Positions 28,289 to 47,820 of a stretch of 64,000 nucleotides of DNA are shown piece by piece (within the stretch, counting starts at the first letter, position 1; the number at the start of each line of letters is the position of its first letter). Under the pieces are notes generated by a model. That model had not been told where the DNA came from. It made no database searches and worked only from the letters and a program-made list of their open reading frames with translations. The stretch is from a virus. Lineage: Duplodnaviria; Caudoviricetes. The translations under genes were made by a program, and so were the position numbers. The DNA is taken from positions 1 to 64,000 of the IMG/VR virus record IMGVR_UViG_2920551333_000002; one strand, 5' to 3'.

Positions 28289-28347
28289 TGTTTACTAGTA
28301 AACAGAGTCGCACTGGCCATGCTGCATCACCCGACGATCACTGTCAA
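28289..28347 (-). promoter_or_regulatory. tra-operon promoter with palindromic operator
   Basis: Minus strand TTGACA(28347-42)-17 nt-CAGCAT; perfect palindrome TGTTTACTAGTAAACA at 28289-28304. Confidence 0.7.
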
Positions 28348-28426
28348 GCCCGCAGGTGAGCCGCACCCGCTTGCCGCTCGTAATACGATCAGCGCCAGCC
28401 AGAACAGCTCAGAGAAGGAGCCCAGA

Positions 28427-29128
28427 GTGCCCGTCGCGAGGTTTCCCGAGGTCCTAAACGACCTCCGGACCAAGATCCTCGACGGCACTTACCCCCCAGG
28501 CGAGCCGCTCCCCCACACCGAAGACCTGATGCAGAGCTACGACGTCAGCAGGCAAGTCATCACCAACGCGATGCGGGCCCTCAAGGAGGAGGGACTGGTC
28601 TGGCGCGTCGCCAACAAGGGCATGATCGTGCAACGACCGCCTGTCATCATCGAAATCCCCATGGCCGTCGAGCGGCGCAACGAGCCCATCGTGTTCATGA
28701 ACGCATGCATGTCGGCGGGTACTACGGGTCACCTAATCGAACAGACTCCGCGAACCGTCCGCCCGCCCGAAGCGATCTTGGAGAGCCTACGCCTCGACCC
28801 CGATCACCCGGTGCTCTACATCGAGGGACATGGTGTTGTCGATGGCCAGGTCGTGTGCCTCGATCAGTGGTACCTCGCTACAGAGGAGCCTGAAGCCGAA
28901 GCGGCCAGCGCAGACCGGTCATCCGACGTGTTGGACATCCACACTCAGCTCCGCCAAGCGGAGCTGGACGAAGCGACAAGGCTCCGAGTCAGCCGAGGCA
29001 GCCCACTGCTCGACATCACGCGCATCACCTACGACTACACTGGCCAGCCTCTCCATCTACTGCGCCGCCTGATCAACCCGCAGCGGGTCCACGTCGTAGA
29101 CCATCGGCTCCCTCCCACGTCACCCTGA
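28427..29128 (+). CDS. GntR-family repressor with UTRA-like domain (KorSA/TraR-like)
   Basis: LRTKILDGTYPPGEPLP...YDVSRQVITNAMRALKEEGLV; divergent from tra operon; AAGGAG RBS. Confidence 0.88.
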   Translation: MPVARFPEVLNDLRTKILDGTYPPGEPLPHTEDLMQSYDVSRQVITNAMRALKEEGLVWRVANKGMIVQRPPVIIEIPMAVERRNEPIVFMNACMSAGTTGHLIEQTPRTVRPPEAILESLRLDPDHPVLYIEGHGVVDGQVVCLDQWYLATEEPEAEAASADRSSDVLDIHTQLRQAELDEATRLRVSRGSPLLDITRITYDYTGQPLHLLRRLINPQRVHVVDHRLPPTSP

Positions 29129-30605: not shown

Positions 30606-31451
30606 GTGACTTTGACGGAGCATGAGATCACCTTCCGTACGCTCGACGGCCAACAGCTCGCCGGAACGCTCGTCACACCAGATGAATCACCTGAGCACGC
30701 CGTCGTCCTGGTCCACGGCGGCGGCGTGACGCGTCACGAAAGCGGCTTCTTCACCCGGATAGCCCGCGGGCTGAGCGACCGCGGTCTGGCGTCCCTCCGA
30801 TTCGACCTGCGCGGCCACGGCGAGAGCGAGGGCCGACAAGAAGAACTGACCCTCTCCACCATCCTCAACGACATCCGCGCCGCGCTGCAGCAGCTCCGCG
30901 AAACCACGGGAGCAGCCAGGCTGAGTCTGCTCGGCACAAGCTTCGGCGGCGGCATCTGCGGCTACTACGCTGCCCACCGACCTGACGAGGTGTCTCGGCT
31001 GGTGCTGTTCAACCCCCAGCTCGACTACAAGAAGCGCACCATCGACAGCCGCCCCTATTGGCATGACGACTACCTGGACGAAGACGTCGCCCGCCAACTC
31101 ACCAAGCAGGGAGCCATCACCTTCACCCCCACCCTGAAGCACGGCCGCCCCATCCTCAACGAGGTCTTCTGGCTGCAGCCGCACACCATCCTCGGCTCGA
31201 TCAAGGCTCCAACCCTCATCGTGCACGGCACCAAAGACACCCTCGTGCCGATCGAGTCCTCCCGCGCGGCCGTACCCCAGTTCACCGCCCCATGCGACCT
31301 CGTCGAGGTCGAAGGCGCACAGCACACCTTCGCTGTCCACGACGACCCGCAGTACCACAACCCCCAGAGCCAGGCATGGCAGGCATCCGTGATCGAGACG
31401 GTCGCCGGCTGGCTGCGAGACGGTCGCCTACGCGACAGGACGATCAGCTAG
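30606..31451 (+). CDS. Alpha/beta hydrolase
   Basis: LVHGGG, FDLRGHGES, nucleophile GTSFGG, HGTKD, GAQH. Confidence 0.9.
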   Translation: MTLTEHEITFRTLDGQQLAGTLVTPDESPEHAVVLVHGGGVTRHESGFFTRIARGLSDRGLASLRFDLRGHGESEGRQEELTLSTILNDIRAALQQLRETTGAARLSLLGTSFGGGICGYYAAHRPDEVSRLVLFNPQLDYKKRTIDSRPYWHDDYLDEDVARQLTKQGAITFTPTLKHGRPILNEVFWLQPHTILGSIKAPTLIVHGTKDTLVPIESSRAAVPQFTAPCDLVEVEGAQHTFAVHDDPQYHNPQSQAWQASVIETVAGWLRDGRLRDRTIS

Positions 31452-32603
31452 GAACTCCTGCAAGGCGCGCACTTGCGGCCGGCGCCGCCAACGATCCATC
31501 GACTGCAGCATCTCGCCCAGAACGGTGACCGTCCGCCGCGAGCGTGTGGCACGGGCTACACGGGCCGCCTCAAGGCCCACGCTTGCCGCCTGATCCGGTT
31601 CGCCGATCAACGCCAACGCGGCTGCGTGACGGGCCTGGAAGTAGCCAACGTCGCGGTAGGACAGGCTGCCACCGGCGATGATCGACTGAAGTATCTCGGC
31701 CGCCCTGGCGGGCTTACCCGCCTCGGTGAAGCACGCACTACTGCGCAGCAGCAGCACGCGCTCTGTGAAGGAACTCCCGAGCGCATTGGGGTCCCCAGCG
31801 GACACCTCTGGCAGCAGCTCGCGCGCCTCGTCTAGTTTCCGCTCTACGTCACTTACAGGTTCGCCGACCATGGCCAGACCCAACGCCTGTTGCTGCAGAA
31901 TCTCCGCGCGCACCCCTGGAGGGAACCGCCCGCTGCTGTAGCCGGCCGCATCAGCCAGGGTCAGCGCCTTCAAGGCATCCTGCCGGTCATATGCGAGCTG
32001 GGACTTCCGCAGCAGCACATAGCCCTGCATGGGACCGTCATCCGCCTCTTGCGCCCATTCGATTGCCCGGTCGTACCAGTACGTCGCTGTCGCGAGATCA
32101 CGCAGGTCGCGGTACAGCCAGCCGACGAATTCGGCGCCCTCGGCCCCCACGACCAGCAGTTGCCGCCGCACCTCCGGTTTCACTTCTCGGACAGCATGCT
32201 GCACAGCCCCAAGCACAGCCTGAACCTTCGGCAGCGCCACTGTCGAGCCAAGGGTTCCGTCATCCGCCTTGCTCGCTTCGAGCTGGGCGCGAAGCTCATC
32301 CACAATGGTCCCGTCGACATAGCGACGAGGATCAGTCAGGATCGCCTCAACCGGCGGCAGCGCATCCATACTCGCCGCTGGCCAGACGACGGCGCGCTGC
32401 CCGCGATCGGCGAGGGACACGAGTTCACCATTCGCCCCGAGTGCCTTATCGAGCGCCGTCGCGACAGGAGCGGTCGGCTGGCGGCGCCCGTTTTCAAGAT
32501 CCGCAATGTGGGTCTTGCTGCAGTTGGACAAGTCGGACACCCTGCGGAGCGACATATCACCACGTAGCCGTCGCAGTGCCTCACCGAACGTTTCCATTCC
32601 CAT
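31428..32603 (-). CDS. XRE-family HTH regulator with helical-repeat C-terminal domain
   Basis: FGEALRRLRGDMSLRRVSDLSNCSKTHIADLENGRR; AEFVGWLYRD. Confidence 0.85.
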   Translation of the reverse strand: MGMETFGEALRRLRGDMSLRRVSDLSNCSKTHIADLENGRRQPTAPVATALDKALGANGELVSLADRGQRAVVWPAASMDALPPVEAILTDPRRYVDGTIVDELRAQLEASKADDGTLGSTVALPKVQAVLGAVQHAVREVKPEVRRQLLVVGAEGAEFVGWLYRDLRDLATATYWYDRAIEWAQEADDGPMQGYVLLRKSQLAYDRQDALKALTLADAAGYSSGRFPPGVRAEILQQQALGLAMVGEPVSDVERKLDEARELLPEVSAGDPNALGSSFTERVLLLRSSACFTEAGKPARAAEILQSIIAGGSLSYRDVGYFQARHAAALALIGEPDQAASVGLEAARVARATRSRRTVTVLGEMLQSMDRWRRRPQVRALQEFLADRPVA

Positions 32604-32930
32604 GCGGCTCCTGTCGTGTCCGCACACGGTGTCCGCAACTTTGCGGACGCCCTGCGGACAGTCCACCCCTCGACCCTGACTGGCGGTGTCAACAACGCTA
32701 CTCTCGCGGGCTTTCGCTTTCGATGCCCGCTCAAATGGGCGGCCCCGGCCCCGGTGCGTGAACACCGGGGAGCTCCGGGGCCTAGATCAGGAATCGAGGT
32801 CCTGACCCGTGGCAAATCGTAAGGCCATCAGGATTCGCAGACACGCGGATCGCCCGCACTGGTCACCGTGCCGCCGACTGCGCAGAAGCACGTGTCCGCT
32901 CGACGAGAGCACGACAGACCGGAGATCCGC

Positions 32931-33764
32931 ATGAGCGAGATCCTTCCGCCAGCGCCTGGTGGCACCTTCAACCCGTGCCAGGCCGCACCAGCTCGAACGT
33001 ATGCCGTGCTACGAGGAGCCGACAAAGACGGGCTGCCGCCCGATCGTGATGCCAGCCAGTCGCTCAAGAAGACGCTGGGCGCGGTGGATGAGGTCGTGCA
33101 AGAGAACGCGGCCGCGCTGGTGCGCGCAATCCGCCACTACGCGCGAGAGGGACACACCCAGTTCGCCGACCTCGGCTGCGGCCGCCCCCTGCAAGGCATG
33201 GACAAGCTCAGGCTGCCCGACCTCGCCGACGTCGCCGCCCAGGCCCAGCCCGACCGGCTCTGGGTCGCCCTCGACTCCGACGTGCAGGTGATCACCGCCT
33301 GCCGAGCGCTGCTCACCGGTCCTGGCGTGAATGTCGTCCAAGAGGACCTGCGCCGGTCAGCGAAGGTCCTCGACGCGCTCTCCCGCCACCTCGACATGAC
33401 CCGGCCGGTCGTCGTCATCCTCGGCGCGGCGCTGCACTTCCTCGACGACCAGGACGCCAAGCACCTGATGATCGCCTTGCGCGCCCGACTCCCCCAGGGC
33501 AGCCTCGTGATCATCACGCACGTCCACCACGCAAGGCTCTCACCCGAACGGATCGCCGCAGGCCAGGCCGAGTACGAGCGGAAGCACGGCGTCAAGATCT
33601 ACGTCCGCAGCCGAGACGAGATCGCCGCGCTGGCCTGCGATTTCACCTTGCAGGAGCCGGGCGTGGTCCGCACGATCGACTTCCGTCCCGACCAGGAAGG
33701 GCCTGGCCCGGTCCAGGACGCGCCGCACTTCCTCATGCTGGCGGCCAAGCGACCTGCGGTGTGA
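32931..33764 (+). CDS. SAM-dependent methyltransferase (actinobacterial DUF574 type)
   Basis: PARTYAVLRGADKD, QFADLGCGRP, ALHFLDD, GSLVIITH, EPGVV. Confidence 0.85.
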   Translation: MSEILPPAPGGTFNPCQAAPARTYAVLRGADKDGLPPDRDASQSLKKTLGAVDEVVQENAAALVRAIRHYAREGHTQFADLGCGRPLQGMDKLRLPDLADVAAQAQPDRLWVALDSDVQVITACRALLTGPGVNVVQEDLRRSAKVLDALSRHLDMTRPVVVILGAALHFLDDQDAKHLMIALRARLPQGSLVIITHVHHARLSPERIAAGQAEYERKHGVKIYVRSRDEIAALACDFTLQEPGVVRTIDFRPDQEGPGPVQDAPHFLMLAAKRPAV

Positions 33765-33964
33765 CAGATCATGGCGCGGCAGCAGCCCACCCCGGCGAGG
33801 TGTATCCGCCATACGCCTCAGTGCCGCGCCTGCTGCGGTCGGCCGGGATCGGGCCCCCGCCGCACCGCACCGCCGGGCGCAGGACGGAGCCGCCCATGCT
33901 CCCTGCTGCGCCCGGCCCCCGACCTCTTCCGCATCCACCTCTACGCATCACCCGGAGGAACCCC

Positions 33965-34270
33965 GTGGCCACCGCCAACGCGACCGCCGACGAACTCGCC
34001 GACGCCGCGGCTCAGGCATACATCCGACAGCACCAGGGGCGCATGCCCGACTGGCTGCTCACCTACAGCCCCTCCCGGCGCAGCCTCATCGCCTACTACC
34101 GCGGGTACTGCCCCCCGCCGGGCATCCAGGTCGAAGCCGAGTACCCAGACGAGCTCCCGCGCCTCCTGCACGAAGCCGTGCAGCCGCTCTGGCAGTCACA
34201 CGGCGCGCCGACGCTGGCAGGCAGAAGACCCGACCCGTGCTCCGGCAATCGAGCGGCGCCGAAGGGGTGA
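33965..34270 (+). CDS. Small hypothetical protein
   Basis: GGAGG RBS before GTG; PDWLLTYSPSRRSLIAYY. Confidence 0.55.
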   Translation: MATANATADELADAAAQAYIRQHQGRMPDWLLTYSPSRRSLIAYYRGYCPPPGIQVEAEYPDELPRLLHEAVQPLWQSHGAPTLAGRRPDPCSGNRAAPKG

Positions 34271-34276
34271 ACGCGC

Positions 34277-34519
34277 GTGAACGAGACAGGGCTGGCACAC
34301 AAGCGGCTCTCGGCGCTGCGTCACACCTTCCCCGCGTTCGACATCGCCCGCGGCCGGGACGAAACCGGCCAAGAGTGGTGGATCGCCCGGCTCCGACGCG
34401 AAGCCACCGAACGCATGCAAGCCGCCGGGGTGATCGCCGTCGTCCAGCGAAGGGACTACGCCTCGCTGGCGTCCTCGCTGGCGTGTCAGGCGGCCATCCT
34501 GCACCACTTCCGCGCCTGA
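34277..34519 (+). CDS. Small hypothetical protein
   Basis: LSALRHTFPAFDI...WWIARLR; in operon. Confidence 0.6.
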   Translation: MNETGLAHKRLSALRHTFPAFDIARGRDETGQEWWIARLRREATERMQAAGVIAVVQRRDYASLASSLACQAAILHHFRA

Positions 34520-34673
34520 CCCACCACCCACAGCTCCCCGGCGGCCGTTGTCACAGGCGGCCGGCGGGAGAGGTGCCCATCCCCATCGGAACGGCACCCA
34601 TCCCAGGACGTCACCCGCGGCCTGGGCTCCCACGCCCCGGACCGCCTCCCGGGGCAGACGAAAGGAGAAACGC

Positions 34674-34892
34674 ATGATGGCCAACGACCTGTACAACCGG
34701 CCGATCGACGAACAGGGCTTCCGCCGACTGTGCGGCGGCAACGACGGCGAGGAGGGCGAATCCTGCGTCGAGATCGCCCCGCTCGTGGGCATCGATGACG
34801 CATTCGCCCTGCGTGACTCCAAGCACCCGGAAGCCGGGACGCTCCGCTTCCACGGGTCCGAGCTCCGCGCGGCCGGCATCACCACCATCTAG
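34674..34892 (+). CDS. DUF397 domain protein
   Basis: GESCVEIA...FALRDSKHPEAGTLRF; AAGGAG RBS. Confidence 0.85.
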   Translation: MMANDLYNRPIDEQGFRRLCGGNDGEEGESCVEIAPLVGIDDAFALRDSKHPEAGTLRFHGSELRAAGITTI

Positions 34893-34972: not shown

Positions 34973-35377
34973 ATGCACTGGCACGCCTACCAGTGGACCG
35001 GCGCAGGCGCCGACCGGGCCAACGAGGCAGAACGTCGCACCACCTCAGCGGATTTCCCCGCCTCGCCGTTGCCGCCCATGCGGACCGGCGACTGGCTGGC
35101 CAAGCCCCCCACGCGCATCGCTGGCACCTTCACCGACGTCGCCCCAGCCGTGGAGTGGCTGGAGGCCAAGTACGACGCAGCCCGCTCCGCCCTGCTCACC
35201 CCGGAACGCATTCCGCTGTCCGACCGGCTGGCCAACGCCCGCGATCTGCTGCCACGCGGGGTGGACGTGCAGTGGGGCGAATGGCTGAGCGGCGGCCGGT
35301 TCATCACGCTCGGCATGGTCTGCTGCCCGAACCGACACACCCCGCATTCCTGCCCCACCAGCGGCCGAACAGGATGA
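34973..35377 (+). CDS. Hypothetical protein upstream of the nucleotide-modification operon
   Basis: MHWHAYQWTG...DWLAKP...GVDVQWGEWL...CCPNRH...CP. Confidence 0.7.
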   Translation: MHWHAYQWTGAGADRANEAERRTTSADFPASPLPPMRTGDWLAKPPTRIAGTFTDVAPAVEWLEAKYDAARSALLTPERIPLSDRLANARDLLPRGVDVQWGEWLSGGRFITLGMVCCPNRHTPHSCPTSGRTG

Positions 35378-35396
35378 CCGGAGATGGAGAACTGAC

Positions 35397-36407
35397 GTGA
35401 CACCTGAGACCGCAGAAACCTTCCACGAGGCGTACCCGCGCGTGCTGGACCAGGTCACGACGTGCCCGGAGTACCGCATCTCCACGCGCGGCAACACGTC
35501 GCTGGAACTGCTGGACGTCTCCTTCCGGGTTGCCGACCCGATCCAGCGGCTGCCGTACCTGGTCAGCCGACCCATCAACCTGGCCTACAACTGGGCCGAG
35601 GTGGTGTGGTACTGGTTCGGCCGCGACGACCTCGACATGATCGGCTACTACGCGCCGCAGATGGCTCAGAACAGCCACGACGGGCGCACGCTCACCGGCA
35701 CCGCCTACGGGCCGCCGCTGTTCAACGAGGGTCCGGACGGCCGCTCGCAGTGGCAGCGCGTGTTGGATCTGCTGGTCAAGGACAACGACAGCAAACGCGC
35801 CGTGCTGACGATCTTCCGCCCGGAGGAACTGGCCGTCGACAGCAACCCGGATGTGTCTTGCACCATCGCCGCCCAATTCTTCCTGCGGGAGAACGGGCTG
35901 AACCTGACGTGCTACATGCGCGGCAACGACGCGTTCATGGGACTGCCCAGCGACTTCTTCTCCTTCACCGTGCTGCAGGAACTGGCCGCTCGCCTGATCG
36001 GCGTCCCGGTCGGCTACTACACCCACCATGTCGGGTCGATGCATGTCAACATGCCCAACCGGCCCAAGGTGCGCAAGATCCTCGCAGAGATCAGCGGCGA
36101 GGACTACCGGCCGCCGGCCTTCCGCTTTCCGATCATGCCGGTCGATTCGTGCATCAGCTCGTTGCGGCTGCTCGTGCGGGAGGAGGAGCGGCTGCGCACC
36201 GACACCCACCGGCACACCGTACGAAGCGTCGCCGAGACCGGGCTGCACCCCTACTGGCAGCAGGTGTTGCTCATCTGGGAGGTGTACCGGCAGATCATCC
36301 ACACCGAATGCGCCGTCAGCGGCGAGGTGCTGTCCGCGCTGGATCCGGGCTACCGGTGGCTGATCGGCCGCCGCTGGCCGGCCCGCATGCCCGAGGCGGC
36401 GGTATGA
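35397..36407 (+). CDS. Thymidylate-synthase-family enzyme, probable (d)CMP hydroxymethylase type
   Basis: TRGN, AYGP, DSKRAV, catalytic DVSCT, MRGNDAFMGLPSD (Asp at the Asn177-equivalent position), GSMH. Confidence 0.85.
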   Translation: MTPETAETFHEAYPRVLDQVTTCPEYRISTRGNTSLELLDVSFRVADPIQRLPYLVSRPINLAYNWAEVVWYWFGRDDLDMIGYYAPQMAQNSHDGRTLTGTAYGPPLFNEGPDGRSQWQRVLDLLVKDNDSKRAVLTIFRPEELAVDSNPDVSCTIAAQFFLRENGLNLTCYMRGNDAFMGLPSDFFSFTVLQELAARLIGVPVGYYTHHVGSMHVNMPNRPKVRKILAEISGEDYRPPAFRFPIMPVDSCISSLRLLVREEERLRTDTHRHTVRSVAETGLHPYWQQVLLIWEVYRQIIHTECAVSGEVLSALDPGYRWLIGRRWPARMPEAAV

Positions 36408-36919
36408 CACCGCCACGGGACGGCTGGGAACGCTGGACGATCATCTTGTGCAAGCCGGACGCCACCCACCGTGGCCTCGTGCTGCCCATCCTGGAATGGA
36501 TCGAGGGCAGCGTGGACATCGTCAAGGCGCGCGAGGTCGTCGTCACCGAACAGCAGATCCTCGCCCACTACGCCGACATGCTCACGCTGCAGCACCGCTT
36601 CAGCTTCGACGTCCGCGCCGACTTGATCAGCCACTACGTCGGCAGCACGGTCACCGTCGCGCTCGGCCACGGCGACAGCGACGACACCGCCCAGCGGGTG
36701 CGTGACCTGCTCGGCCACTACGACCCGTCCCGCGCCCCGTCGTACACCATCCGCGGCCACTACGGCATCGACAGCGCCGAGCGGGCAACCGCGGAGGGCC
36801 GATTCATTCACAACCTGGTCCACTCCAGCGACCACGCCAAGGACGCCGAAGCCGATTTCATGATCTGGTTCGGCGACCCCTACCGGCACATCCTCACCCA
36901 GGAGGCCCGAGCACGATGA
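36404..36919 (+). CDS. ndk: Nucleoside-diphosphate kinase
   Basis: TIILCKPDA, HYAD, TIRGHYG, NLVHSSD phospho-His motif; ATGA-coupled. Confidence 0.88.
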   Translation: MTPPRDGWERWTIILCKPDATHRGLVLPILEWIEGSVDIVKAREVVVTEQQILAHYADMLTLQHRFSFDVRADLISHYVGSTVTVALGHGDSDDTAQRVRDLLGHYDPSRAPSYTIRGHYGIDSAERATAEGRFIHNLVHSSDHAKDAEADFMIWFGDPYRHILTQEARAR

Positions 36920-38184
36920 CCCGGCATCCCGCCCACCTTGGCGACACCATCCCCACCGGGCCGGCGCATCTGCGGCTGATACCCACCAGCGAGCAGACGC
37001 AGCTCGACCCGTACATGGCGCAGATCGTCACCAACCGCAAGTCCGGGATCAGCCTCAACCACATCATCGGCTGCCCGCTCGACTGCGGCTACTGCGTGCG
37101 CCACTTCTGGGGCAACTTCGAGCAGAAGATCCCCCAACTGCTCGTCCCCACCGATGAGGCGGTCCGGCTGCTGGTCAACCATCCCGAGTTCCTGGACCAC
37201 ACCACACCGATCCAACTCTTCAACAAGGCGACCGACCCGTTCCTGCCGGGCGTCAAACCCCACACCTTCGCCGTCTTGGAGGACCTCGATCGGCAAGGCC
37301 TGACCAACCTGGTGCTGATCATCACCCGCTTCCACGTCACCCAGGCCGACATGGACCGGCTGGAAAGCCTGCACTACGTCCGGCCGACGCTGCTGATCAC
37401 CTACTCCGGCATCCGGGACGACCGGGTGGAGCCGATCGGCAAGTCCACCACCACCGTCGACTCCATCATCACCGCGGCCCGCCACAGCGAGCGGACGAAG
37501 GTGATCCTTTACTGGCGGCCGATCGTGCCCGGCTGGAACGACGACTGCGCCTCGATGGCGCACGTGCTCGGCGTCGCCGCCGACGCCGGCGTGGACGCGC
37601 TCGTGTTCACCGGCTACTACCACAAGGAGGAGAACGCCACCTACCTGCGGGAGATGGGCGTGCCCGTGCCGTACGGCGACGACTGGCAGCGCCGCAAGAT
37701 GCTGCCCGCCGACCTGGACGCCCGCGTCGTCGAGGCATGGCGCGACTCCGGCATCAGCGTGCCACTGTTCCGCAAGACGTCCTGCGGCGTCACCGCGTCC
37801 TGGCAGCTCCCCGACTACAACGGCCACCTGGGCGTGCCCGAGCTGTGCGACATCTGCCCGCCCGAGCAGGTCGCCCGCTGTGCCGAAGCGCTCAAGGCCC
37901 CCACCGACGAGCAGGTGCGGGACGCGCTCGACCTGTTCGACTTCGACCCGGACACGCCGTTCCTCATCGAGCACGGGCACGTCCTGACCGCCAAGCTCGG
38001 CGAGCAGCGCCGATACGCCCTGCAGCACCTGTTCGGCTACCAGTTCTGGGAGGTCGAACACCCGCACGTGCACGCCGCACACGGCCGGGCTCTGCAAGGC
38101 TACGAACTGACCCCGGCCGAGCAGGAAGCGCTCGACGGAGCACGCGAACGCCTCGCGGCCGCCGCCCGCCACGAAGACGACTGA
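36916..38184 (+). CDS. Radical SAM protein (SPL-like subgroup)
   Basis: GCPLDCGYC (CxxxCxxC), ATDPF, RPIVPGWND, additional Cys near C-terminus; ATGA-coupled. Confidence 0.85.
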   Translation: MTRHPAHLGDTIPTGPAHLRLIPTSEQTQLDPYMAQIVTNRKSGISLNHIIGCPLDCGYCVRHFWGNFEQKIPQLLVPTDEAVRLLVNHPEFLDHTTPIQLFNKATDPFLPGVKPHTFAVLEDLDRQGLTNLVLIITRFHVTQADMDRLESLHYVRPTLLITYSGIRDDRVEPIGKSTTTVDSIITAARHSERTKVILYWRPIVPGWNDDCASMAHVLGVAADAGVDALVFTGYYHKEENATYLREMGVPVPYGDDWQRRKMLPADLDARVVEAWRDSGISVPLFRKTSCGVTASWQLPDYNGHLGVPELCDICPPEQVARCAEALKAPTDEQVRDALDLFDFDPDTPFLIEHGHVLTAKLGEQRRYALQHLFGYQFWEVEHPHVHAAHGRALQGYELTPAEQEALDGARERLAAAARHEDD

Positions 38185-38200
38185 CCAGGAGCACACACCG

Positions 38201-38848
38201 ATGCCAGAGCTGCCGTGGACGGACGCCGACCTCGTCGTCATCGACCTGGAAGGCACCGGCGGGCAGGACCGCCGCGACGAGGCGATCCTGGAGATCGCCA
38301 TCGTCCCCCTGGCCGATGGCCGGCCCGACATGCGCGCCGCGTGGGACACCACCATCAACCCGGGCCGGTGGATCAACCCTCGCCCCTGGATCTCCCCCGG
38401 TCTCACCGGGGACGCGCTCGCGGGCGCCCCTACGCTCGACGAGCTGCGCGACACGATCGTGAAGAAGCTGAGCGGGCGCGTCCTGGTCGGCCACAACGTG
38501 GGCGTGGACTGGCGGCTCCTCCACCTGCGGCTCCCCGAGCTGGAGCCCGCGGGGCTCATCGACACCGCCGCGCTGACCCGGCACCTGCGGCCGGACATCA
38601 AGCGGTGGAACCTGGCCGGGCTGCTCGACCAGTACACCCTCACCGACCACGTGAACGCTCTGGTACCTCATGGCCGGCCGCACCGGGCGCTGTGGGACGC
38701 GGTGGGCGCTGCGCTGCTCCTGGCCGAGTTGGTCAGCCAGCTTCCGGACACGGCTGATACCTCACTATCTGTGCTTCAGCATGTCGCCGGGCGTGCGCCG
38801 GCAGAGTCGGCGCCTGCGGAACCTGATCAGCTCACACTCGACTTGTAA
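38201..38848 (+). CDS. DEDDh 3'-5' exonuclease
   Basis: IDLEGTG, GHNVGVD, HRALWDA. Confidence 0.88.
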   Translation: MPELPWTDADLVVIDLEGTGGQDRRDEAILEIAIVPLADGRPDMRAAWDTTINPGRWINPRPWISPGLTGDALAGAPTLDELRDTIVKKLSGRVLVGHNVGVDWRLLHLRLPELEPAGLIDTAALTRHLRPDIKRWNLAGLLDQYTLTDHVNALVPHGRPHRALWDAVGAALLLAELVSQLPDTADTSLSVLQHVAGRAPAESAPAEPDQLTLDL

Positions 38849-39000: not shown

Positions 39001-39048
39001 AAAAGAGCGCCCCGCCCCTCCCGGCGAACGGGAGGAGCGGGGCGCTCT
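39001..39048 (-). terminator. Terminator of the late/lysis operon (possibly bidirectional)
   Basis: AGAGCGCCCCGC...GCGGGGCGCTCT stem with TTTT on the minus strand. Confidence 0.75.
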
Positions 39049-39697: not shown

Positions 39698-39721
39698 GCC
39701 GAAAGCGGTACCGCAATCAGC
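39698..39721. promoter_or_regulatory. 24-bp pseudo-palindrome site after endolysin
   Basis: GCCGAAAGCGGTACCGCAATCAGC. Confidence 0.75.
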
Positions 39722-40679
39722 GATTGAACATGGCGATCTTGGCCATGGTCACCTTCTCGACCACCGCCGCGGCGTCGGTCGGGTTGATGATCCGTAGCCG
39801 GAGCTGGGTCTTGCTGTTGAGCCCGAACTGGCCACCGATACTGTGCTCCACGCGGCCGTTGGCGTCCGCGCGCACGCTCAGCCGCCAGGCGTCGTCCTCG
39901 AACTTCTCGCCGTCGCGGGAGTAGCGTGACCACGCCAGGTCGATCTCCGAACCCGGCTTCAGCCCGCGGACCTTGACCAGGCCGTCCACGATGCACCAGC
40001 GAGACTCCTTCGCCAGAACCGCGACGCCGTCCTCGGCGTGGCCGGGCGGGTCATCCGCGTACTCGATGTGCCAGCGCACCGCCAGCGCGCCGCCGGCCGG
40101 GGCCTCCTGGTCCTCACCGGCACCCAGAGAGATCACCTCGGGCACGTCTTCCTCCTGCTTGATCGGCGCTCCGGGACTCTTGAGCAGCGCGGCCACCCGC
40201 CCTCGGAACGTGTTCATGTTGACGCTGTGCGGGTCCGGCTTCTGGGTGTTGACCTCCTTGTGGCCGCACACCCGAGACGCGGGCAGGTCGAACTCTCTGC
40301 ACAACTCCGCGCAGAGCGCGTGATAGGCGTCGAGCTGCACCTGCGGCCACGGCGTGCGGCCGTCGTTTTCGGCCTCGATCCCGATGGACGCCCCGTTGCG
40401 GTGGTGCGGGCTGGTGCTCGGCGCGTTGTGCCAGCACCTCCCAGCCGCCACGATCCAGATACGGCCGGTGTGCTCCAGCCAGATGTGCGACAGCGGACCA
40501 CGTAGTCCCGGCCGACCGGCGACCACGACGTGCCGGTCACGCCACCCCGCGGTGTGGTGGCACACCACGCCCTCCACCGTGGGCTGCGGCCCGTGCCCAC
40601 GCGACCGCCACCCGCCCACCTCCGTCACCGGGAAACCCGTCTTTCGGGCCACGTCGGCGAGCTGCGTCAGCCACGGCAT
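39717..40679 (-). CDS. Endolysin, N-acetylmuramoyl-L-alanine amidase
   Basis: CHHTAG, CWHNA, SIGIEAE, GHKE, KPDP. Confidence 0.9.
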   Translation of the reverse strand: MPWLTQLADVARKTGFPVTEVGGWRSRGHGPQPTVEGVVCHHTAGWRDRHVVVAGRPGLRGPLSHIWLEHTGRIWIVAAGRCWHNAPSTSPHHRNGASIGIEAENDGRTPWPQVQLDAYHALCAELCREFDLPASRVCGHKEVNTQKPDPHSVNMNTFRGRVAALLKSPGAPIKQEEDVPEVISLGAGEDQEAPAGGALAVRWHIEYADDPPGHAEDGVAVLAKESRWCIVDGLVKVRGLKPGSEIDLAWSRYSRDGEKFEDDAWRLSVRADANGRVEHSIGGQFGLNSKTQLRLRIINPTDAAAVVEKVTMAKIAMFNR

Positions 40680-40701
40680 GATCAATCCCCCTTGACTACG
40701 A

Positions 40702-41719: not shown

Positions 41720-44455
41720 TCAGTGGCGGTGAACCCACCAGTAATAGGCCGTAGAACTCGACCAGTCCGTGTTGATCCGGAACCCTGTCTCGCTCGACCA
41801 GGTGCAGTACCAGTCGCCCGCAGGATCGTGGCCAGATGATCCGCTCTCAGAGACACCGCGTCGCACGACGGCGACCGGCCCCATGTTGCCGAGCATCGAC
41901 GCCCCGTAGGAGATCCAGTTCGTCCCGGGCGGCCCGCCCGGCGTCCACACCATCGACCCGGCGAGGATGCCCGCGGTGTTGCCCAGCGCGGTGAAGTCCC
42001 ACCATTTGCCCACGTGTCTCGTACGGCCGCTGTTATCGAACCAGAAATACTGTTCGCGGCTGCCGTCCTTGAAATACCCGTACCTGGCATAGCCCTCCGC
42101 GACCTCCATCAACCCGCCATTCGGATTGGCCAGAGCCGCGTCCCTCACCTGCAACTGCATGAAGCCGGCCGCGATCGTGGTCTGGCTCGCAGCCGTCGCG
42201 CCGCTGTTGGTACCGCTCGTGACCTCGAACGTAGCCTCGCCGGAGAACACGTCATCCCGAGTTCGCAGCCGCGTGTAGTTCGTCCCGGACGACGGGTAGA
42301 ACCGCATCTCAGGAAAGGTCGCCCCAGGCGGCTGCAGGTCCAGGCGCCGTCCGGTCGCCGCCGTCCTGATGTTGCTGCCCGTGATGGTCTTCCCATCGAT
42401 CGCCGTAGCGGTCAGTCGGGTCGCGTCCACCGACCCGGCGGCGAGCTTGTCGAGCGTGACAGCGTTGGCCTTCAGGTGCGGGGTCTCGATCGCCGAAGCT
42501 TGAATGAGCCCGCCCGTGATCGTGTTGGCGATGACAGCGTCGGCCGCGTTCACGGTGCCGTCGATGATGTTCGCCCCGCTGAGTACCTTCCCGATGACGT
42601 CGCCGTTGACGAGCGGCTGCGTCGCGATGCTTGCCGCAGTGGAGGGTGCGGACTCGTTGCCGCGCCGGTCCACGGACGTGAAGCGGAACCAGCGTGGTGT
42701 GTTGTAGGGCTGGTCCGCGACGAGTGCCGCGCCGGCCGCGCGCAGGTGGTCCACCAGCGTCCACGGGCCATCGGCTGCGCCCGCCATCCATACCCGCACC
42801 TGCTCAAAGTCCGACGACATGCCGCCGTTCTGGCCTAGCCCGTCCCAGCCAACCTCGATCACCCCGAGCCGGGTAGACAAGGCTGGCGTGCTCGGCACTG
42901 GCGGCGGGGTCGTATCGTCCTCGATCAGCGCCACCACCTGATCGCTGAATTCGCCCTTGGTGCCCTGCGCCACGGCGCGTACTTTGAACGCGTATGTCGT
43001 GGCGACGATCAGCGGGGAGTACGACGCCGTGGTGTCGTCGCTGCTGGCGATCAGCCGCCACGGCTCGCCGAGTTGGTTGACCCGGGCGTACAGCTCGTAG
43101 CCGTCCACTGTGAGCGCGACCCCGGCGACGTCGGCGGCAACCGCCCCCCAGGTAGCGGTGACCTGCCCGCGAGCAAACCCGTATTCGTCCACGTAGGCGG
43201 CGTCGTCGATGATCAGTCCGGGCGGCTTCGCTGCCACGCGTCCGCCTGGCTGCTCCGGAGCTGGTTCGCCTCCGGACCCGCCGGATCCCACCCCGCCGTC
43301 GAGGATCCCGGCCGCCTGCCTGGCTAACCTGATTTCGCGTTCCAAGAACCGGTCGTTGAGCACAACGTTGCCGCCCACCTGACCGTCCGACCCCACCGAC
43401 AAGGTGATCTGCCTCAGCCGCAACGACTGCATCGCCCCGCCGTCGCCCGGCGCGAGCAGGTAGTCCCCCGGCTGGTAATGCTCGAACGGCAGCCACCGCG
43501 CCCCGCTGAACAACAGCCCGCGGGTGACCTGCACCCGCTCACGGGCGACACGCTCCAACGCGTTCTGCCCCAGCAACGTCGCGGTCCCGGCGTCCGAGAC
43601 GCCGTTCTGCGACTGGTAGGTCTCCCAGCGACCCCATGGCGCGACAGCCCCCGGGTTGGTCACCTCCACCGACAGGCCGGCCTCGCCGCCGATCAGGATG
43701 GCCGACGCGGCATCCTCCAGCGTGCCCGTGTCGGGTGCCTCGGTGATGTCACGCCCAATCCGCAGGTCCACCGGCGACGAGCCGGACGCCCGGTCAGCGC
43801 CGAGCACCGTGTCCGGGTTGTACACCTGCAGCGTGCGGCCCTGCATCCGCCAGTCGATGACGCCCTGCTCGCTCAGGTTGATCAGGACGCTGAGCAGGTC
43901 CTTGCCCGGCTCGATGGCCAGCGTCAGCTTCCGCGTCGGGTCCCACGCCTGGTTGTCGCTGTCGCGGGTGTCGGAGAAGTTGTAGGTCAGGCCGGCCAGC
44001 GCGCCGCGCGCCTTCCCTTCCTGGATGAACGTCGCGAGGATCGCCCCGGCGCTGACGGCGTTGAACTGGCGCTTGCCGTCCACCATCGACCCGTTGGGGT
44101 ACAGCACGACCTTCCGCAGCATCCAGGCCCAGCCCGGCAGATCGTAGGAGCGGGCCCCAGCCCGGTCGGTCTCGTCGCCACCCCGCTTGATCCGCAGAAA
44201 CCGCGCGTTCGGCGGCTCCACCCACGGGCCGCCGTCCGCCGCGTACTCCACCGCGACCTCGCAGTGCTCGGCGATGAGGTGGGCGTTCAGCCCAGCCGCC
44301 GGGTAGGTCGCCCTGAGGCTGGGCACGTCGTTCAGCGGGGTGGCCAGCTCGAAGCCGCTGTGCTGAGGGAGCGTACCGAGCCGCACGTCATTGGGCGCGT
44401 AAGCCACCAGCCGCAGCGCGAACTTCGTGGGCTCACCTGGGATGATCACCTGCAC
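41720..44455 (-). CDS. Minor tail/tail-tip protein with FN3-like domains, copy 2
   Basis: LRLVAYAP, PLNDVPSL, PWGRWE, YAFKVRAV, beta-helix-like repeats. Confidence 0.8.
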   Translation of the reverse strand: MQVIIPGEPTKFALRLVAYAPNDVRLGTLPQHSGFELATPLNDVPSLRATYPAAGLNAHLIAEHCEVAVEYAADGGPWVEPPNARFLRIKRGGDETDRAGARSYDLPGWAWMLRKVVLYPNGSMVDGKRQFNAVSAGAILATFIQEGKARGALAGLTYNFSDTRDSDNQAWDPTRKLTLAIEPGKDLLSVLINLSEQGVIDWRMQGRTLQVYNPDTVLGADRASGSSPVDLRIGRDITEAPDTGTLEDAASAILIGGEAGLSVEVTNPGAVAPWGRWETYQSQNGVSDAGTATLLGQNALERVARERVQVTRGLLFSGARWLPFEHYQPGDYLLAPGDGGAMQSLRLRQITLSVGSDGQVGGNVVLNDRFLEREIRLARQAAGILDGGVGSGGSGGEPAPEQPGGRVAAKPPGLIIDDAAYVDEYGFARGQVTATWGAVAADVAGVALTVDGYELYARVNQLGEPWRLIASSDDTTASYSPLIVATTYAFKVRAVAQGTKGEFSDQVVALIEDDTTPPPVPSTPALSTRLGVIEVGWDGLGQNGGMSSDFEQVRVWMAGAADGPWTLVDHLRAAGAALVADQPYNTPRWFRFTSVDRRGNESAPSTAASIATQPLVNGDVIGKVLSGANIIDGTVNAADAVIANTITGGLIQASAIETPHLKANAVTLDKLAAGSVDATRLTATAIDGKTITGSNIRTAATGRRLDLQPPGATFPEMRFYPSSGTNYTRLRTRDDVFSGEATFEVTSGTNSGATAASQTTIAAGFMQLQVRDAALANPNGGLMEVAEGYARYGYFKDGSREQYFWFDNSGRTRHVGKWWDFTALGNTAGILAGSMVWTPGGPPGTNWISYGASMLGNMGPVAVVRRGVSESGSSGHDPAGDWYCTWSSETGFRINTDWSSSTAYYWWVHRH

Positions 44456-44600
44456 GGCTGGCCCCCTTCAGATCGTTGATCTCGTCGCGCTGTTGGTCGA
44501 TGGCCGCTGAAAGCAGCGCGTTCTCGTACACCAGCTCCTCAACTCGCGCGCGCAGCGCTGCGATGATCCGGCCCGTGTCCACCACGAGGTCTTGCCGCAT
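44433..44600 (-). CDS. Small coiled-coil protein
   Basis: IIAALRARVEELVYENALLSAAIDQ; TAATG coupling. Confidence 0.55.
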   Translation of the reverse strand: MRQDLVVDTGRIIAALRARVEELVYENALLSAAIDQQRDEINDLKGASRAGDHPR

Positions 44601-45073
44601 TACGCTCCTGTCTGCAGAAGCGCCCGCTGCTGTTCCAGGCGCGTGGCCGCGGCCTTCACCGGGTCGATCCGCACGTACGACCGCAGCGGGGCGAGCACGT
44701 CGGCTGCCTTCCGCGCGGCCGCCGTCCGAGCCTTCGGTACGGCTGTCGCGACCGTCGCGTGGTCGCGACGGCATCGCTCGACCCGCTCCAGCACAGCGGC
44801 GCGGGCTTCCTCTCCCGGCATCTGCCATGGGTTCGTCTCGGGCAAGTTCGGCTCGTAGACGGGATGGACAGCGCGGTGCATCAGCACGTCGATCACCTCG
44901 TCCGTCGACGCCAGGCCGCACGCCACAGCGGTGGACTCGATCGCCACCTTCGGCAGGAACACCCCGACCGTGACACCGTCGCTGGCCCGGGTCAGCATGA
45001 TCTCCCATGCGTCGATCCGCCCGGACTCGTCGGCGGTGTCGGTCACCTCCGTGACCTGCCATGCGTCCGGCAT
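44600..45073 (-). CDS. Tail-associated protein, paralog of 41037-41708
   Basis: ESTAVACG...VIDVLMH...VRIDPVKA; GGAGG RBS. Confidence 0.65.
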   Translation of the reverse strand: MPDAWQVTEVTDTADESGRIDAWEIMLTRASDGVTVGVFLPKVAIESTAVACGLASTDEVIDVLMHRAVHPVYEPNLPETNPWQMPGEEARAAVLERVERCRRDHATVATAVPKARTAAARKAADVLAPLRSYVRIDPVKAAATRLEQQRALLQTGA

Positions 45074-45075
45074 CG

Positions 45076-47820
45076 TCACCTCCAGGCCCAGATATGGAAC
45101 GTCCGGCTCGGCGCGGGAGACCCAGCGGCCGGATCGTAGAAGAACAGGTCGCCGTTGCTGCGGGAATACAGCTGCATGTTCGTGGTCTGCTCGGCCGTGA
45201 ACACCACCTTCGGCACGGTCGGGAAGCTGTACCCGAGCACCACCTGGTAGTAGGTGGCGCCCTTCGTCGCCGTGACCGAAATCATGATCAGACCGGAGTC
45301 GTCGGCGTACATCCACGTGCCCCGGTGAAGCGTCCCCGCCTGGTCGAGCACAAGGAGCTGGTCCTGCTGCGTCGGGTGCGTCCACCCGATCGACGCCTGC
45401 CCCTCCACCGCCGACACCGCGCCGCCGCGCTGCTCACCGTTCGACGGGTTCAGGATCGCTGCCTGCCAGAAGCCGGCCGCGTGCGTCAGGCGGCACATCG
45501 CGGTGCCCGGCTGGTTGGTGCCCGACTCCATGATCAGGGTCGCCTCCCCTGTGAAGCGGCTACCGTCGCTGTAGATACGCGACTGGTTGATGCCGCTGCC
45601 AGGGATGAACCGGATCTCAGGGGCCGCCGCGCCCGCAGGGTTGACCACCACCCGCGCGCCCGTCACCCCGGACGCGAGCTGACCCACGATGGACACCGCC
45701 CCCGTGGCGGCCGAGATGCTGGCGGTCTGCTGGCCGGAGCCGTTGAACGCCGCCAGGCCCGAGCTGTTGAGCTCGACCCGAGAACCGGACGCGCTGCCCG
45801 CGACGACGCGGGTGGACAGCGTGAGCACCGCGGCGAGCTTGTCGGCCACCACCGCGCCGGCCTTGATGTGCTGCGCATCGACCGCGCCCACCGCGAGCTT
45901 GTCAGTAGTGACCGCGTTCGCGACCAGCGCGCCCGTCGTGATCGACTCGTTCGCGGCGTCGCCCTGGACGAGCTGCACCGCGGCGATCGTCGCCGACGCG
46001 GACGGAGCCGACTCGTTACCAGACCTGTCACGAGCGGTGAACCGGAACTGCCTGTCCGCGCCGTACGAGAGGCCCGGCACGAGAATCGCCCCGGCCTCCC
46101 CCAGCACGCCGATCTCCGACCAGCCGGGCGCAAGCGGGTCCTGTATCCACACGCGGACGTGCAGGAAGTCCGGCGGCATCGGCGCCGAGCCGACCCCGAG
46201 CCCGGACCAGGTCACCCGGACCACGCCGAGCCGCGTGGAGAGCTGCGGGGCGGTCGGTACGGGCGGCGCTTCGTCGTCGTCGGGGATCGTCACCGCCACC
46301 TGACTGGAGAACGGGCCGGTCTTGCCGACGTTCACCGCCCGGACCTTGAAGGCGTACGACTCGCCGCTGACGAGCGGCGAGTACGTGGCCGTGGTGTCGC
46401 CCGCCGGAGTGGAGGTGACGAGGAACCACGGCTGCCCCTGCTGGTTGATCCGCATGAACAGCTCGTAGCCGCCCACGGTGAGCGCGACCCCTCCGGCATC
46501 GGTGGTGACTGCGCCCCATGAGACCGTCACCTGCCCGTGCGGCAGCCCGTGCTCATCGATGTACGGCAGCGGGTTCACCAGCAGTCCGGTCGGGGCCGCC
46601 GGCGTGCGCGGCTCGGGCGCTTCCGGGCTCGGTTGCGCCCCTGACCCTCCGTCCGCCGTCGAACCGCCGACGATCCCGGCCGTCCGGCGGGCCAGCCGGA
46701 TGTCCCGCTCCAAGAACCGGTCGTTGAGGACGAGCGACCCGCCGAGCACGCCTGTCGAGGTGCGCGCCAACGTCACCTGCCGGACGCGCAGCGGCTCCAG
46801 AACTCCGCCGTCTCCTGGCGCGAGCACCCGGTCACCGGGCTGGTAGTCCTTCAGCGGCAACCAGCGTGCGCCGGGGATGACGATGCCTCGCGTTCGCTGC
46901 ACCCGCTCGCGCCCGGCGCGCTCGAGCGCGGATTGCGCGAGGATCGTCGCAGTGCCCTCGTCGGCGATGCCGCCCGCGCCGACGTACTGCTCCCACCGCC
47001 CCCACGGCTGCGCTGCAGCGGGGTTGGTGAACGTCTTCACCAGGCCGTGGTCCCCGACGAGCAGCACCGACGACGCCAGATCCTCCAGCGTCGCGTCGTC
47101 CGGCGCCTCCGCGATGTCGCGGCCGTATCGCAGGTCCACCGGGGCAGGTCCGGCCGCCAGGTCGTCGTTCAGCGTGTCAGGGTTGAACACCTGCAGCGTG
47201 CGGCCAGCCATGCGGAAGTCGCACACGCCCTGCTCGGCAAGGTTCTGCAGCGCCGTCAGCGCGTCCATGCCGGGCTGGTAGTAGATGTTGATGACCTTGT
47301 TCCAGGCGTGCCCTGCGCTGTCCTCGTCCGGGTTGAAGTCCCAGTTCAGGCCGGGTACCGCTTCGCGGCCCGGGGCCTTGGCCTCGGCGATGAACGTCTG
47401 CAGGATCTCGCCCGCCGTCGCGGAGAGGAACGCCCTCTTGCCGTCCACCAGCGGCACCGCACCGGGGTGGAGCACCACCTTACGGAGCATCCACACGAAG
47501 CCGGGCAGCTCGAACCTGAACAGCCCAGTCGAGTCGGAGCTGTCACCGCGGCGCTTGATGCGCAGGAACCGCGAGTCGGGCCCTTCGGTCCAGACGGTGC
47601 CGTCGACGCTCCACTCGACGGCGATCTCGCATGGCTGGTGGAGCAGGGCGGCGCCCACCGCGGTGGTGGTGTAGGTCAGCTTGAGCGACGGCACATCGTT
47701 CAAGGGCAAACCCGCCTCGAACGTCAGCGGGTGCGGGAGCACACCGAGCCGGCCACCGAAAGGCGCGTAGGCTACGAGTCGAAGATCAAACACCGGCCCC
47801 CTTGCCCATTCGATGGTCAC
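45076..47820 (-). CDS. Minor tail/tail-tip protein with FN3-like domains, copy 1
   Basis: Colinear paralog of 41720-44455; follows Dit. Confidence 0.8.
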   Translation of the reverse strand: MTIEWARGPVFDLRLVAYAPFGGRLGVLPHPLTFEAGLPLNDVPSLKLTYTTTAVGAALLHQPCEIAVEWSVDGTVWTEGPDSRFLRIKRRGDSSDSTGLFRFELPGFVWMLRKVVLHPGAVPLVDGKRAFLSATAGEILQTFIAEAKAPGREAVPGLNWDFNPDEDSAGHAWNKVINIYYQPGMDALTALQNLAEQGVCDFRMAGRTLQVFNPDTLNDDLAAGPAPVDLRYGRDIAEAPDDATLEDLASSVLLVGDHGLVKTFTNPAAAQPWGRWEQYVGAGGIADEGTATILAQSALERAGRERVQRTRGIVIPGARWLPLKDYQPGDRVLAPGDGGVLEPLRVRQVTLARTSTGVLGGSLVLNDRFLERDIRLARRTAGIVGGSTADGGSGAQPSPEAPEPRTPAAPTGLLVNPLPYIDEHGLPHGQVTVSWGAVTTDAGGVALTVGGYELFMRINQQGQPWFLVTSTPAGDTTATYSPLVSGESYAFKVRAVNVGKTGPFSSQVAVTIPDDDEAPPVPTAPQLSTRLGVVRVTWSGLGVGSAPMPPDFLHVRVWIQDPLAPGWSEIGVLGEAGAILVPGLSYGADRQFRFTARDRSGNESAPSASATIAAVQLVQGDAANESITTGALVANAVTTDKLAVGAVDAQHIKAGAVVADKLAAVLTLSTRVVAGSASGSRVELNSSGLAAFNGSGQQTASISAATGAVSIVGQLASGVTGARVVVNPAGAAAPEIRFIPGSGINQSRIYSDGSRFTGEATLIMESGTNQPGTAMCRLTHAAGFWQAAILNPSNGEQRGGAVSAVEGQASIGWTHPTQQDQLLVLDQAGTLHRGTWMYADDSGLIMISVTATKGATYYQVVLGYSFPTVPKVVFTAEQTTNMQLYSRSNGDLFFYDPAAGSPAPSRTFHIWAWR

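Follow-up and report, generated by a model that had tools for sequence, protein, structure and literature searches.

What is the product of four tightly packed genes for nucleotide enzymes carried by a temperate prophage? The question is raised by IMG/VR record IMGVR_UViG_2920551333_000002 (Caudoviricetes), of which we analysed positions 1-64,000 as a window of 64,000 nucleotides (nt). Within 34973-38848, this window encodes a thymidylate synthase (TS) homologue, a nucleoside diphosphate kinase (NDK), a radical S-adenosylmethionine (SAM) enzyme (rSAM) and an exonuclease (Exo). We find that this cassette is a conserved mobile module, and we propose, with a confidence that falls somewhat short of even, that its product is an intracellular cytidine nucleotide modified on both base and sugar, with a role in conflict or antiviral defence.

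A conserved four-gene cassette

Open reading frame (ORF) calling identified five ORFs on the plus strand of the region:

34973-35377, plus strand: leader ORF of 134 amino acids (aa), no family; its place is taken by a GT-B glycosyltransferase in other cassettes
35397-36407, plus strand: putative MilA-type pyrimidine C5-hydroxymethylase (the TS homologue), 336 aa, PF00303 E 6e-18; predicted substrate a cytosine ribonucleotide
36404-36919, plus strand: divergent NDK, 171 aa, PF00334 E 4e-18
36916-38184, plus strand: uncharacterised radical-SAM enzyme, 422 aa, CX3CX2C motif (CPLDCGYC) and radical-SAM fold
38201-38848, plus strand: DnaQ/PolC-type DEDDh 3'-5' exonuclease, 215 aa, PF00929 E 2e-8

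The first-pass annotation, made from the sequence of the window, had described the first three of the four genes as ATGA-coupled, and we located these overlaps at 36404-36407 (TS/NDK) and 36916-36919 (NDK/rSAM). The rSAM stop lies 16 nt from the exonuclease start, which is preceded by AGGAG. The motifs quoted in that annotation (MRGNDAFMGLPSD, GSMHVN, DVSCT and VHSSD) were all found in the translations. The four genes form a single, translationally coupled operon of intact enzymes, two of which work on nucleotide mono- and diphosphates, and are cargo of the prophage.

We found the TS-NDK-rSAM-Exo order again at more than 20 independent loci, in about 15 actinobacterial genera (Nonomuraea, Planotetraspora, Nocardiopsis, Streptosporangium, Streptomonospora, Herbidospora, Sinosporangium, Sphaerisporangium, Sciscionella, Actinomadura, Streptomyces, Amycolatopsis, Paractinoplanes, Micromonospora, Actinoallomurus and Parafrankia). 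Because the order recurs so widely, the arrangement is not a product of chance, and the co-occurrence across actinobacteria for which a search had been suggested is indeed found. No description of this gene set was found in the literature, PADLOC, NCBIfam or Pfam, in keeping with the earlier remark that no characterised pathway with such a layout was known to its author, and none of the terms of the module occur in a preprint on language-model prediction of defence systems.

The TS homologue resembles the cytosine hydroxymethylase MilA

We next consider the substrate of the TS homologue, which scores 65.4 bits against PF00303 (gathering cut-off 24.3). Its residues 4-331 align with residues 4-328 of MilA (PDB 5jnh/5b6d) at E 1e-73, the C-terminal helical extension included, in comparison to only ~1e-12 for the ordinary thymidylate synthases in the PDB. 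The protein keeps E68, K133, C155, D186 and H216, and has Gly at 176 and Asn at 218. Among 20 type-A cassette copies, the catalytic nucleophile C155 and the general base E68 are invariant, residue 176 is always Gly or Ala, and residue 218 is Asn in 15 copies, Gly in five and Tyr in none. Three copies checked from Streptomyces plasmids have Ala176 and Asn218, and both K133 and D186 are present in every cassette copy checked.

In MilA, Lys133 and Ala176 favour ribose, with Arg and Ser at these positions in deoxy-specific enzymes; Asp186 selects cytosine, where enzymes for deoxyuridine monophosphate (dUMP) have Asn; and His216 and Tyr218 bind the 2'-OH of cytidine monophosphate (CMP) (PMC5175136). 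This last pair is incomplete in the window protein, which keeps H216 and has Tyr218 replaced. The first-pass annotation had taken an Asp as the mark of a cytosine enzyme, and this view gains from the full-length relationship to MilA and from Asp186 in all cassette copies checked. It had also read a Gly in place of the RS serine and an Asn in place of the H-x-Y tyrosine as a changed sugar pocket; we see these residues as G176 and N218, next to a ribose-type Lys133. From these positions we infer a ribo-type cytosine hydroxymethylase with a sugar pocket consistently unlike that of MilA. Every cassette copy has a changed pocket, with K133, G/A176 and N/G218 versus R, S and Y; this pocket fits a ribose or modified-ribose substrate, and a substrate with an altered ribose would suit it.

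The protein departs from a canonical ThyA in having Asp186 (N177 in E. coli) and, in place of the Arg/Ser phosphate-sugar pair, Lys133 and Gly176, and NCBIfam thymidylate synthase models score the protein at 20-51 bits against cut-offs of 108-576. The genome that holds the window has ThyX, and its only other PF00303 gene lies in a second copy of the cassette, so the TS homologue is not the thymidylate synthase of the cell.

The closest characterised relative of the TS homologue, with which it shares Cys155, Glu68, Asp186, Lys133 and a small residue 176, thus comes from the mildiomycin pathway of Streptomyces rimofaciens. The window protein differs from MilA in having Asn218 (Gly in some relatives) rather than Tyr and Gly176 rather than Ala, and its cassette lacks a MilB-type hydrolase and other mil genes, its partners being the NDK, the radical-SAM enzyme and the exonuclease. 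This kinship raises the possibility that the genes form a miniature biosynthetic cluster whose secreted product, a nucleoside antimetabolite or antibiotic, is built from 5-hydroxymethylcytidine, the exonuclease providing self-resistance. Nucleoside antibiotic pathways often contain radical-SAM enzymes and reductases, lanthipeptide clusters adjoin the cassette in three loci and an NsdA-family regulator lies upstream of it in the window. Nevertheless, we consider such a cluster quite unlikely: there is no conserved MilB/BlsM-type nucleotide hydrolase, transporter or peptide- or sugar-tailoring set, the module is very small and mobile, its alphaproteobacterial plasmid versions sit beside defence genes, and its dedicated kinases point to a triphosphate, an intracellular end product.

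A radical-SAM enzyme with four additional invariant cysteines

The radical-SAM protein belongs to no family in Pfam, PADLOC or NCBIfam, PHROGs gave it no functional name and a sequence search of the PDB returned nothing meaningful. PF04055 does not match it, and the scores of distant relatives (21-30 bits) straddle the cut-off of 29.5. Its AlphaFold2 model (pLDDT 91.6) adopts a radical-SAM fold with a partial TIM barrel. In an alignment of 44 sequences ten positions are invariant, seven of them cysteines: C53, C57 and C60 of the CX3CX2C cluster motif, and C290, C311, C314 and C322 in the C-terminal domain. By its cluster motif and modelled fold, the protein belongs to the radical SAM superfamily.

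Comparison of the model with solved structures gave spore photoproduct lyase (SPL; 4fhc, residues 12-288) at Z 15.7, the pyruvate formate-lyase activating enzyme at 15.1, NifB at 14.4 and viperin at 13.1. Many radical-SAM structures fall between Z 15.7 and 12 with 9-16% identity over the core, and there is no clear favourite; AprD4 reaches Z 9.5. The nearest named ESM Atlas clusters are DUF1848/SPL (TM ~0.5). An assignment to viperin or the prokaryotic viperins (pVips) was tried and rejected, as no PADLOC family matched at E <= 0.01 and the viperin match, at 12% identity, does not rise above those of other radical-SAM enzymes.

The family comprises 593 representatives at 50% clustering (E <= 0.001), which databases name 'radical SAM protein', 'DNA repair photolyase' or 'hypothetical'. 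Some distant relatives are fusion proteins that also contain a nucleoside deoxyribosyltransferase-like or a GT2 domain, and the metagenomic protein P0045 is an NDK-rSAM fusion. The fusions to NDK and to the deoxyribosyltransferase-like domain point to nucleotides as substrates.

Shortened or frameshifted rSAM frames were observed in a cyanobacterial metagenome-assembled genome (MAG; L027:7001-8101) and a Candidatus Taylorbacteria MAG (L029:7001-8117). These copies may be assembly errors or decaying genes and were left out of the analysis. On a Nocardia plasmid (L045:5967-10134), the rSAM appears to be split over two short annotated ORFs, with a dihydrofolate-reductase-family protein and a deaminase as divergent neighbours. 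Downstream are genes for a glycosyltransferase and a NUDIX protein, as well as for a 5'-3' exonuclease and another 3'-5' exonuclease.

A divergent NDK and a proofreading-type exonuclease

The NDK scores 66 bits against PF00334 (cut-off 27), and its nearest PDB structure is 1xqi (E 7e-15). Scores under the NCBIfam equivalog cut-offs make it a divergent member of its family. Among 22 copies, K17, Y56, R100, R117, N137, H140, S142 and D143 hardly vary, the phospho-histidine H140 lying in NLVHSSD. Unusual forms of the gene include an NDK-rSAM fusion of 598 aa on a metagenomic contig (L032:1786-3582), where a glycosyltransferase gene precedes it, and a tandem NDK-NDK fusion of ~350 aa on a Streptomyces plasmid (L042, 7967-9028); the NDK gene at L046:7921-8973 has the same length as the latter.

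The exonuclease scores 35.5 bits against PF00929 (cut-off 24), and none of D15, E17, D103, H161 and D166 varies among 22 copies. Its closest PDB structures are the PolC exonuclease domain 2p1j and exonuclease X, both DNA-type 3'-5' exonucleases. PADLOC matches are confined to the generic DEDDh model (E 7e-22) and PDC-S48. An exonuclease gene follows the rSAM gene in the loci examined, with the exception of a Nostoc plasmid (L036), where none is annotated, and of incomplete contigs.

Could these enzymes simply serve ordinary nucleotide metabolism or DNA repair, as a spare thymidylate synthase and NDK, an SPL-like lyase and a repair exonuclease? Database names ('thymidylate synthase', 'DNA repair photolyase') suggest so, and among solved structures the rSAM core is most similar to SPL; JGI gives many homologues the COG1533 name 'DNA repair photolyase'. 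However, the TS homologue has Asp186 instead of Asn, which indicates cytosine rather than uracil, together with K133 and G176, and it scores far under the NCBIfam thymidylate synthase cut-offs. The radical-SAM enzyme shares only 11-12% identity with SPL, has no SPL Pfam match, differs in its C-terminal domain with the four invariant cysteines and has nucleotide enzymes as genomic partners. Since the host genome encodes ThyX as well as a canonical NDK of its own on contig C554, the cassette enzymes are not housekeeping ones. Moreover, only one of 400 evenly sampled other Actinomycetota genomes matched at E <= 1e-30, which does not befit a housekeeping function. This explanation is largely excluded, and we consider it very improbable.

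Variants place the radical-SAM enzyme, exonuclease and kinase at the core

To define which parts of the module are constant, we compared its variants. Several loci (including L002, L004, L006, L013, L020 and L032-L034) have an extra gene of 340-365 aa before the TS gene. Its product is a compact GT-B glycosyltransferase, with a weak Glyco_trans_1_2 match and Atlas neighbours that include T4 beta-glucosyltransferase (BGT) clusters. The model matches T4 BGT at TM 0.63/0.66 and has the alpha-glucosyltransferase (AGT) among its best matches, and other small GT-B enzymes match equally. In 5 of 23 actinobacterial loci, an aldo/keto reductase (AKR) gene comes after that of the exonuclease, and Streptomyces plasmids carry the order TS-NDK-rSAM-Exo-AAA_28 kinase-AKR, AAA_28 being a P-loop kinase. 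Alphaproteobacterial plasmids have rSAM, Exo and the AAA_28 kinase with an HD (dGTPase-like) protein or an AKR, without TS and NDK, and the Nostoc plasmid has the rSAM and AAA_28 kinase genes. Recurrent accessories beyond those in the window are therefore the GT-B glycosyltransferase, the AKR, the AAA_28 kinase and the HD hydrolase.

TS and NDK are missing from the alphaproteobacterial and Nostoc plasmids and from a third copy in the host genome, which leaves the radical-SAM enzyme, the exonuclease and a kinase as the constant core across several phyla. By this comparison of gene sets, the hydroxymethylase is an actinobacterial add-on, and cytosine hydroxymethylation would decorate the pathway rather than define it. 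The cassette in the window is the minimal actinobacterial version of the mobile module. The earlier proposal of an operon for a modified cytidine nucleotide is thus upheld in part: the MilA-type enzyme and the conserved gene order agree with it, but hydroxymethylation does not belong to the core.

The glycosyltransferase recalls the 5-hydroxymethylcytosine (hmC) pathway of T-even phages (gp42, kinases and alpha- and beta-glucosyltransferases), in which a TS-family cytosine hydroxymethylase is likewise followed by a kinase. Accordingly, the module could serve DNA hypermodification. In this alternative, a 5-hydroxymethylcytosine nucleotide, possibly converted from the ribo to the deoxy form by the radical-SAM enzyme with or without the AKR, would be incorporated by a resident polymerase and sometimes glycosylated by the BGT-like transferase; the modification would protect the element against restriction, or would label self DNA so that the exonuclease leaves it intact. 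The T-even-like layout, the resemblance of the transferase to BGT and AGT, the carriage by prophages and plasmids, the DNA-proofreading type of the exonuclease and the structural proximity of the rSAM core to the DNA enzyme SPL all speak for this. Against it stands the ribo signature of the TS homologue (K133 and G/A176, never R or S), which in MilA favours CMP over deoxycytidine monophosphate. In addition, the core exists without any TS, the transferase matches BGT no better than other small GT-B enzymes, and many copies lie in chromosomal islands without phage genes. The module occurs in chromosomes and on plasmids, and a tblastn search with the radical-SAM protein gave no match among 50,697 isolated phage genomes. 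Unlike a T4-type hmC module, the window cassette includes a radical-SAM enzyme and an exonuclease and has no glycosyltransferase. The first-pass annotation had seen no DNA polymerase or dCTPase in the window; this agrees with our finding that PolA and MazG (a dCTPase type) have no genome match inside it, in a search that left out nucleoside monophosphate (NMP) kinases and other polymerase families. On balance, we regard hypermodification as an unlikely explanation that still merits consideration.

The module is mobile, patchy and present in multiple copies

We then examined the distribution of the module. The genome of the window holds three copies. The second is a full TS-NDK-rSAM-Exo set on contig C277 (L043:6822-10253; 75-82% identity), and the third is an rSAM-Exo pair without TS and NDK on C444 (L044:7662-9438, minus strand; 44% identity). 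The rSAM gene was found on 30 plasmids. A scan of IMG/VR yielded a single provirus, which has the cassette at its edge and proved identical in sequence to locus L007 of Nocardiopsis salina. In Planotetraspora phitsanulokensis (L006), a related prophage carries the cassette and a glycosyltransferase at a similar position; it encodes (12133-15219 and 1290-2132) a tail protein 48% identical to that at 41720-44455 of the window and a homologue of the window gene at 28178-29128. The module thus travels with this phage lineage.

On some plasmids the neighbours include defence genes. On Sinorhizobium meliloti pSymA (L035), the rSAM-Exo-kinase-HD set is flanked by a CBASS operon and a TcmP/DUF5131 pair (2114-6179 and 10829-12973), the CBASS operon comprising patatin, CD-NTase and E1-like Cap2 with ImmA/HTH. 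An anti-phage dGTPase and GIY-YIG, TIR and WYL genes are neighbours on an A. vitis plasmid, an N6 methylase on a Labrenzia plasmid, and toxin-antitoxin and RES genes lie near the cassette on Mesorhizobium, Nostoc, Gluconobacter and Streptomyces plasmids. The mobile, patchy and multi-copy pattern fits a conflict system.

A proposed route to a base- and sugar-modified cytidine nucleotide

How might these enzymes act together? In the favoured reading, that of an intracellular cytidine nucleotide modified on base and sugar, the MilA-type enzyme would place a hydroxymethyl group on C5 of a cytosine ribonucleotide monophosphate. Radical chemistry by the rSAM enzyme would alter the nucleotide, most plausibly at the ribose, and the AKR of many relatives would finish this radical step; its frequency hints at a keto sugar as intermediate, by analogy with pairs of radical-SAM dehydratase and reductase. 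The dedicated NDK, joined by the AAA_28 kinase in other versions, would bring the product to an intracellular triphosphate, and the module may carry its own kinases because those of the host may reject the analogue. The product would then act as viperin products do, disturbing the synthesis of nucleic acids by invading phages or plasmids, with the exonuclease trimming the analogue off host 3' ends or, alternatively, supplying monophosphate precursors.

Several observations weigh against this scheme. Step order, radical site, triphosphate product, antiviral role and exonuclease task are all inferred, each step of the pathway being a prediction from sequence. The radical-SAM enzyme is, as far as its sequence indicates, not a viperin. 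The genes of the window cassette include no NMP kinase, so the step from CMP to cytidine diphosphate would rely on the host, and because pVip systems need no exonuclease, the role given to it here is ad hoc. The BGT-like glycosyltransferase of some relatives fits DNA modification equally well. The window TS, NDK and rSAM match no PADLOC model, and no anti-phage system catalogued in PADLOC v2 corresponds to the cassette. In a survey of 149 neighbouring ORFs from the 23 actinobacterial loci, PADLOC gave only scattered matches (mad2 four times, mad3 twice, AriA, MzaA and others); known defence genes are sparse around these loci, with no convincing enrichment. The recurrent neighbours there are HTH_31/DUF5753 regulators, GNAT, APH, Methyltransf_19, AKR and class I lanthipeptide genes. 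The defence-island evidence is therefore anecdotal, coming from a handful of plasmids without a background control.

Two known kinds of system provide the closest parallels for the favoured reading. Like the pVips, the module links a radical-SAM enzyme to nucleotide kinases on mobile or defence-rich DNA, which makes the analogy of a modified nucleoside triphosphate plausible. It differs in the extra four-cysteine C-terminal domain of its radical-SAM enzyme, to which viperin is only a mid-list structural match, in its exonuclease partner (the Nostoc plasmid excepted) and in the actinobacterial base-modifying TS homologue, which has no pVip counterpart. The second parallel concerns sugar deoxygenation. 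AprD4 and AprD3 are a radical-SAM dehydratase and a reductase that deoxygenate a sugar, and the cordycepin set Cns1-3 consists of a kinase, an HD hydrolase and an oxidoreductase. The AKR, HD hydrolase and kinase accessories of the module may match such toolkits for deoxygenation through keto intermediates, a likeness that serves as a lead; the window cassette has no reductase, and its enzyme was compared with AprD4 by fold alone.

A more specific version of the scheme goes further, and we doubt that it holds in full. Here, the core would be an antiviral nucleotide factory independent of viperin, in which the radical-SAM enzyme, helped by a reductase in those versions that have one, eliminates a ribose hydroxyl or inverts its configuration. 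A 5-hydroxymethyl group (glycosylated in some versions) would come from the MilA-like enzyme, and the kinases would yield a doubly modified cytidine triphosphate analogue that ends or poisons the synthesis of phage nucleic acids, with the exonuclease as built-in immunity that excises the analogue from host chains.

The module is a variation on known nucleotide-modifying systems of the T-even hmC and viperin types, built on an uncharacterised radical-SAM family. A chain terminator with its own immunity, if real, could make it a new class. If a new nucleotide analogue is made, it would represent a second radical-SAM route to antiviral nucleotides, unrelated to viperin, and could bring a new chain-terminator chemistry, that of a nucleotide carrying changes in the base as well as the sugar. 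In that case, a radical-SAM family that spans several hundred clusters at 50% identity would gain its first function, a proofreading exonuclease could emerge as a self-immunity factor, and a MilA-type ribonucleotide hydroxymethylase would be seen at work outside antibiotic biosynthesis. Whatever the product, the six-component family (GT, TS, NDK, rSAM, Exo and AAA_28/AKR/HD) is conserved, mobile and, as far as we could find, undescribed, and the module is small enough for direct cloning and testing.

Prophage setting, leader ORF and neighbouring genes

The window carries a siphovirus-type temperate prophage with the following landmarks:

19500-20873: tyrosine integrase
39004-39048, minus strand: intrinsic terminator of the convergent lysis operon, a 20-pair stem with a T tail, bounding the cassette
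39717-40685: endolysin (phrog_880, E 5e-41)
41720-47820: tail proteins
50134-52503: tape measure protein
58585-61062: head morphogenesis/protease
61062-62636: portal protein

The operon sits between the endolysin and integrase genes and is transcribed in the direction opposite to the late genes. The arm of a prophage from lysis genes to integrase is the usual site for cargo genes. The coordinates and the terminator agree with the initial description of four tightly packed genes and a leader ORF that face the lysis terminator, as does every other detail of that observation that we checked.

The leader ORF has no match in Pfam, PADLOC or NCBIfam and none usable in PHROGs, and its sole homologue found is in Nonomuraea ceibae (L025, 62% identity). 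We considered whether it is a remnant of the glycosyltransferase X5, and the two proved unrelated on comparison.

LanB dehydratase genes adjoin the cassette in Micromonospora and Actinoallomurus (L033:12050-18168 and L034:12369-18437), where LanC, a split LanB C-domain, a PCMT-like methyltransferase and a small peptide gene are also present. LanB alone lies beside the third copy in the genome of the window (L044:1521-4622). The adjacency in these three loci could equally reflect a functional link or a shared variable island.

Ahead of the operon, 31428-34892 of the window holds an NsdA-family regulator, a methyltransferase, an 80-aa ORF and a DUF397 protein. Two of these are as follows:

31428-32765, minus strand: NsdA-family regulator with helix-turn-helix (HTH) and TPR-like regions, divergently placed (HTH_31 E 6e-10; NsdA_fam_reg 163 bits against a cut-off of 75, NCBIfam)
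32868-33764, plus strand: Methyltransf_19 (DUF574) SAM methyltransferase (PF04672 E 8e-39)

HTH regulators of 400-460 aa occupy the equivalent position in L034, L037, L042 and L046, and this association makes it possible that the NsdA-family protein controls the operon. Methyltransf_19 homologues adjoin the cassette in L025, L009 and L034. Homologues of the methyltransferase (59% identity) and of the 80-aa ORF also flank the third rSAM-Exo copy of the host (L044:5301-6996), and similar upstream sets are present in Actinoallomurus (L034:1869-4332) and Nonomuraea ceibae (L025:2428-4177). This upstream gene set may belong to the system, in a regulatory or accessory role.

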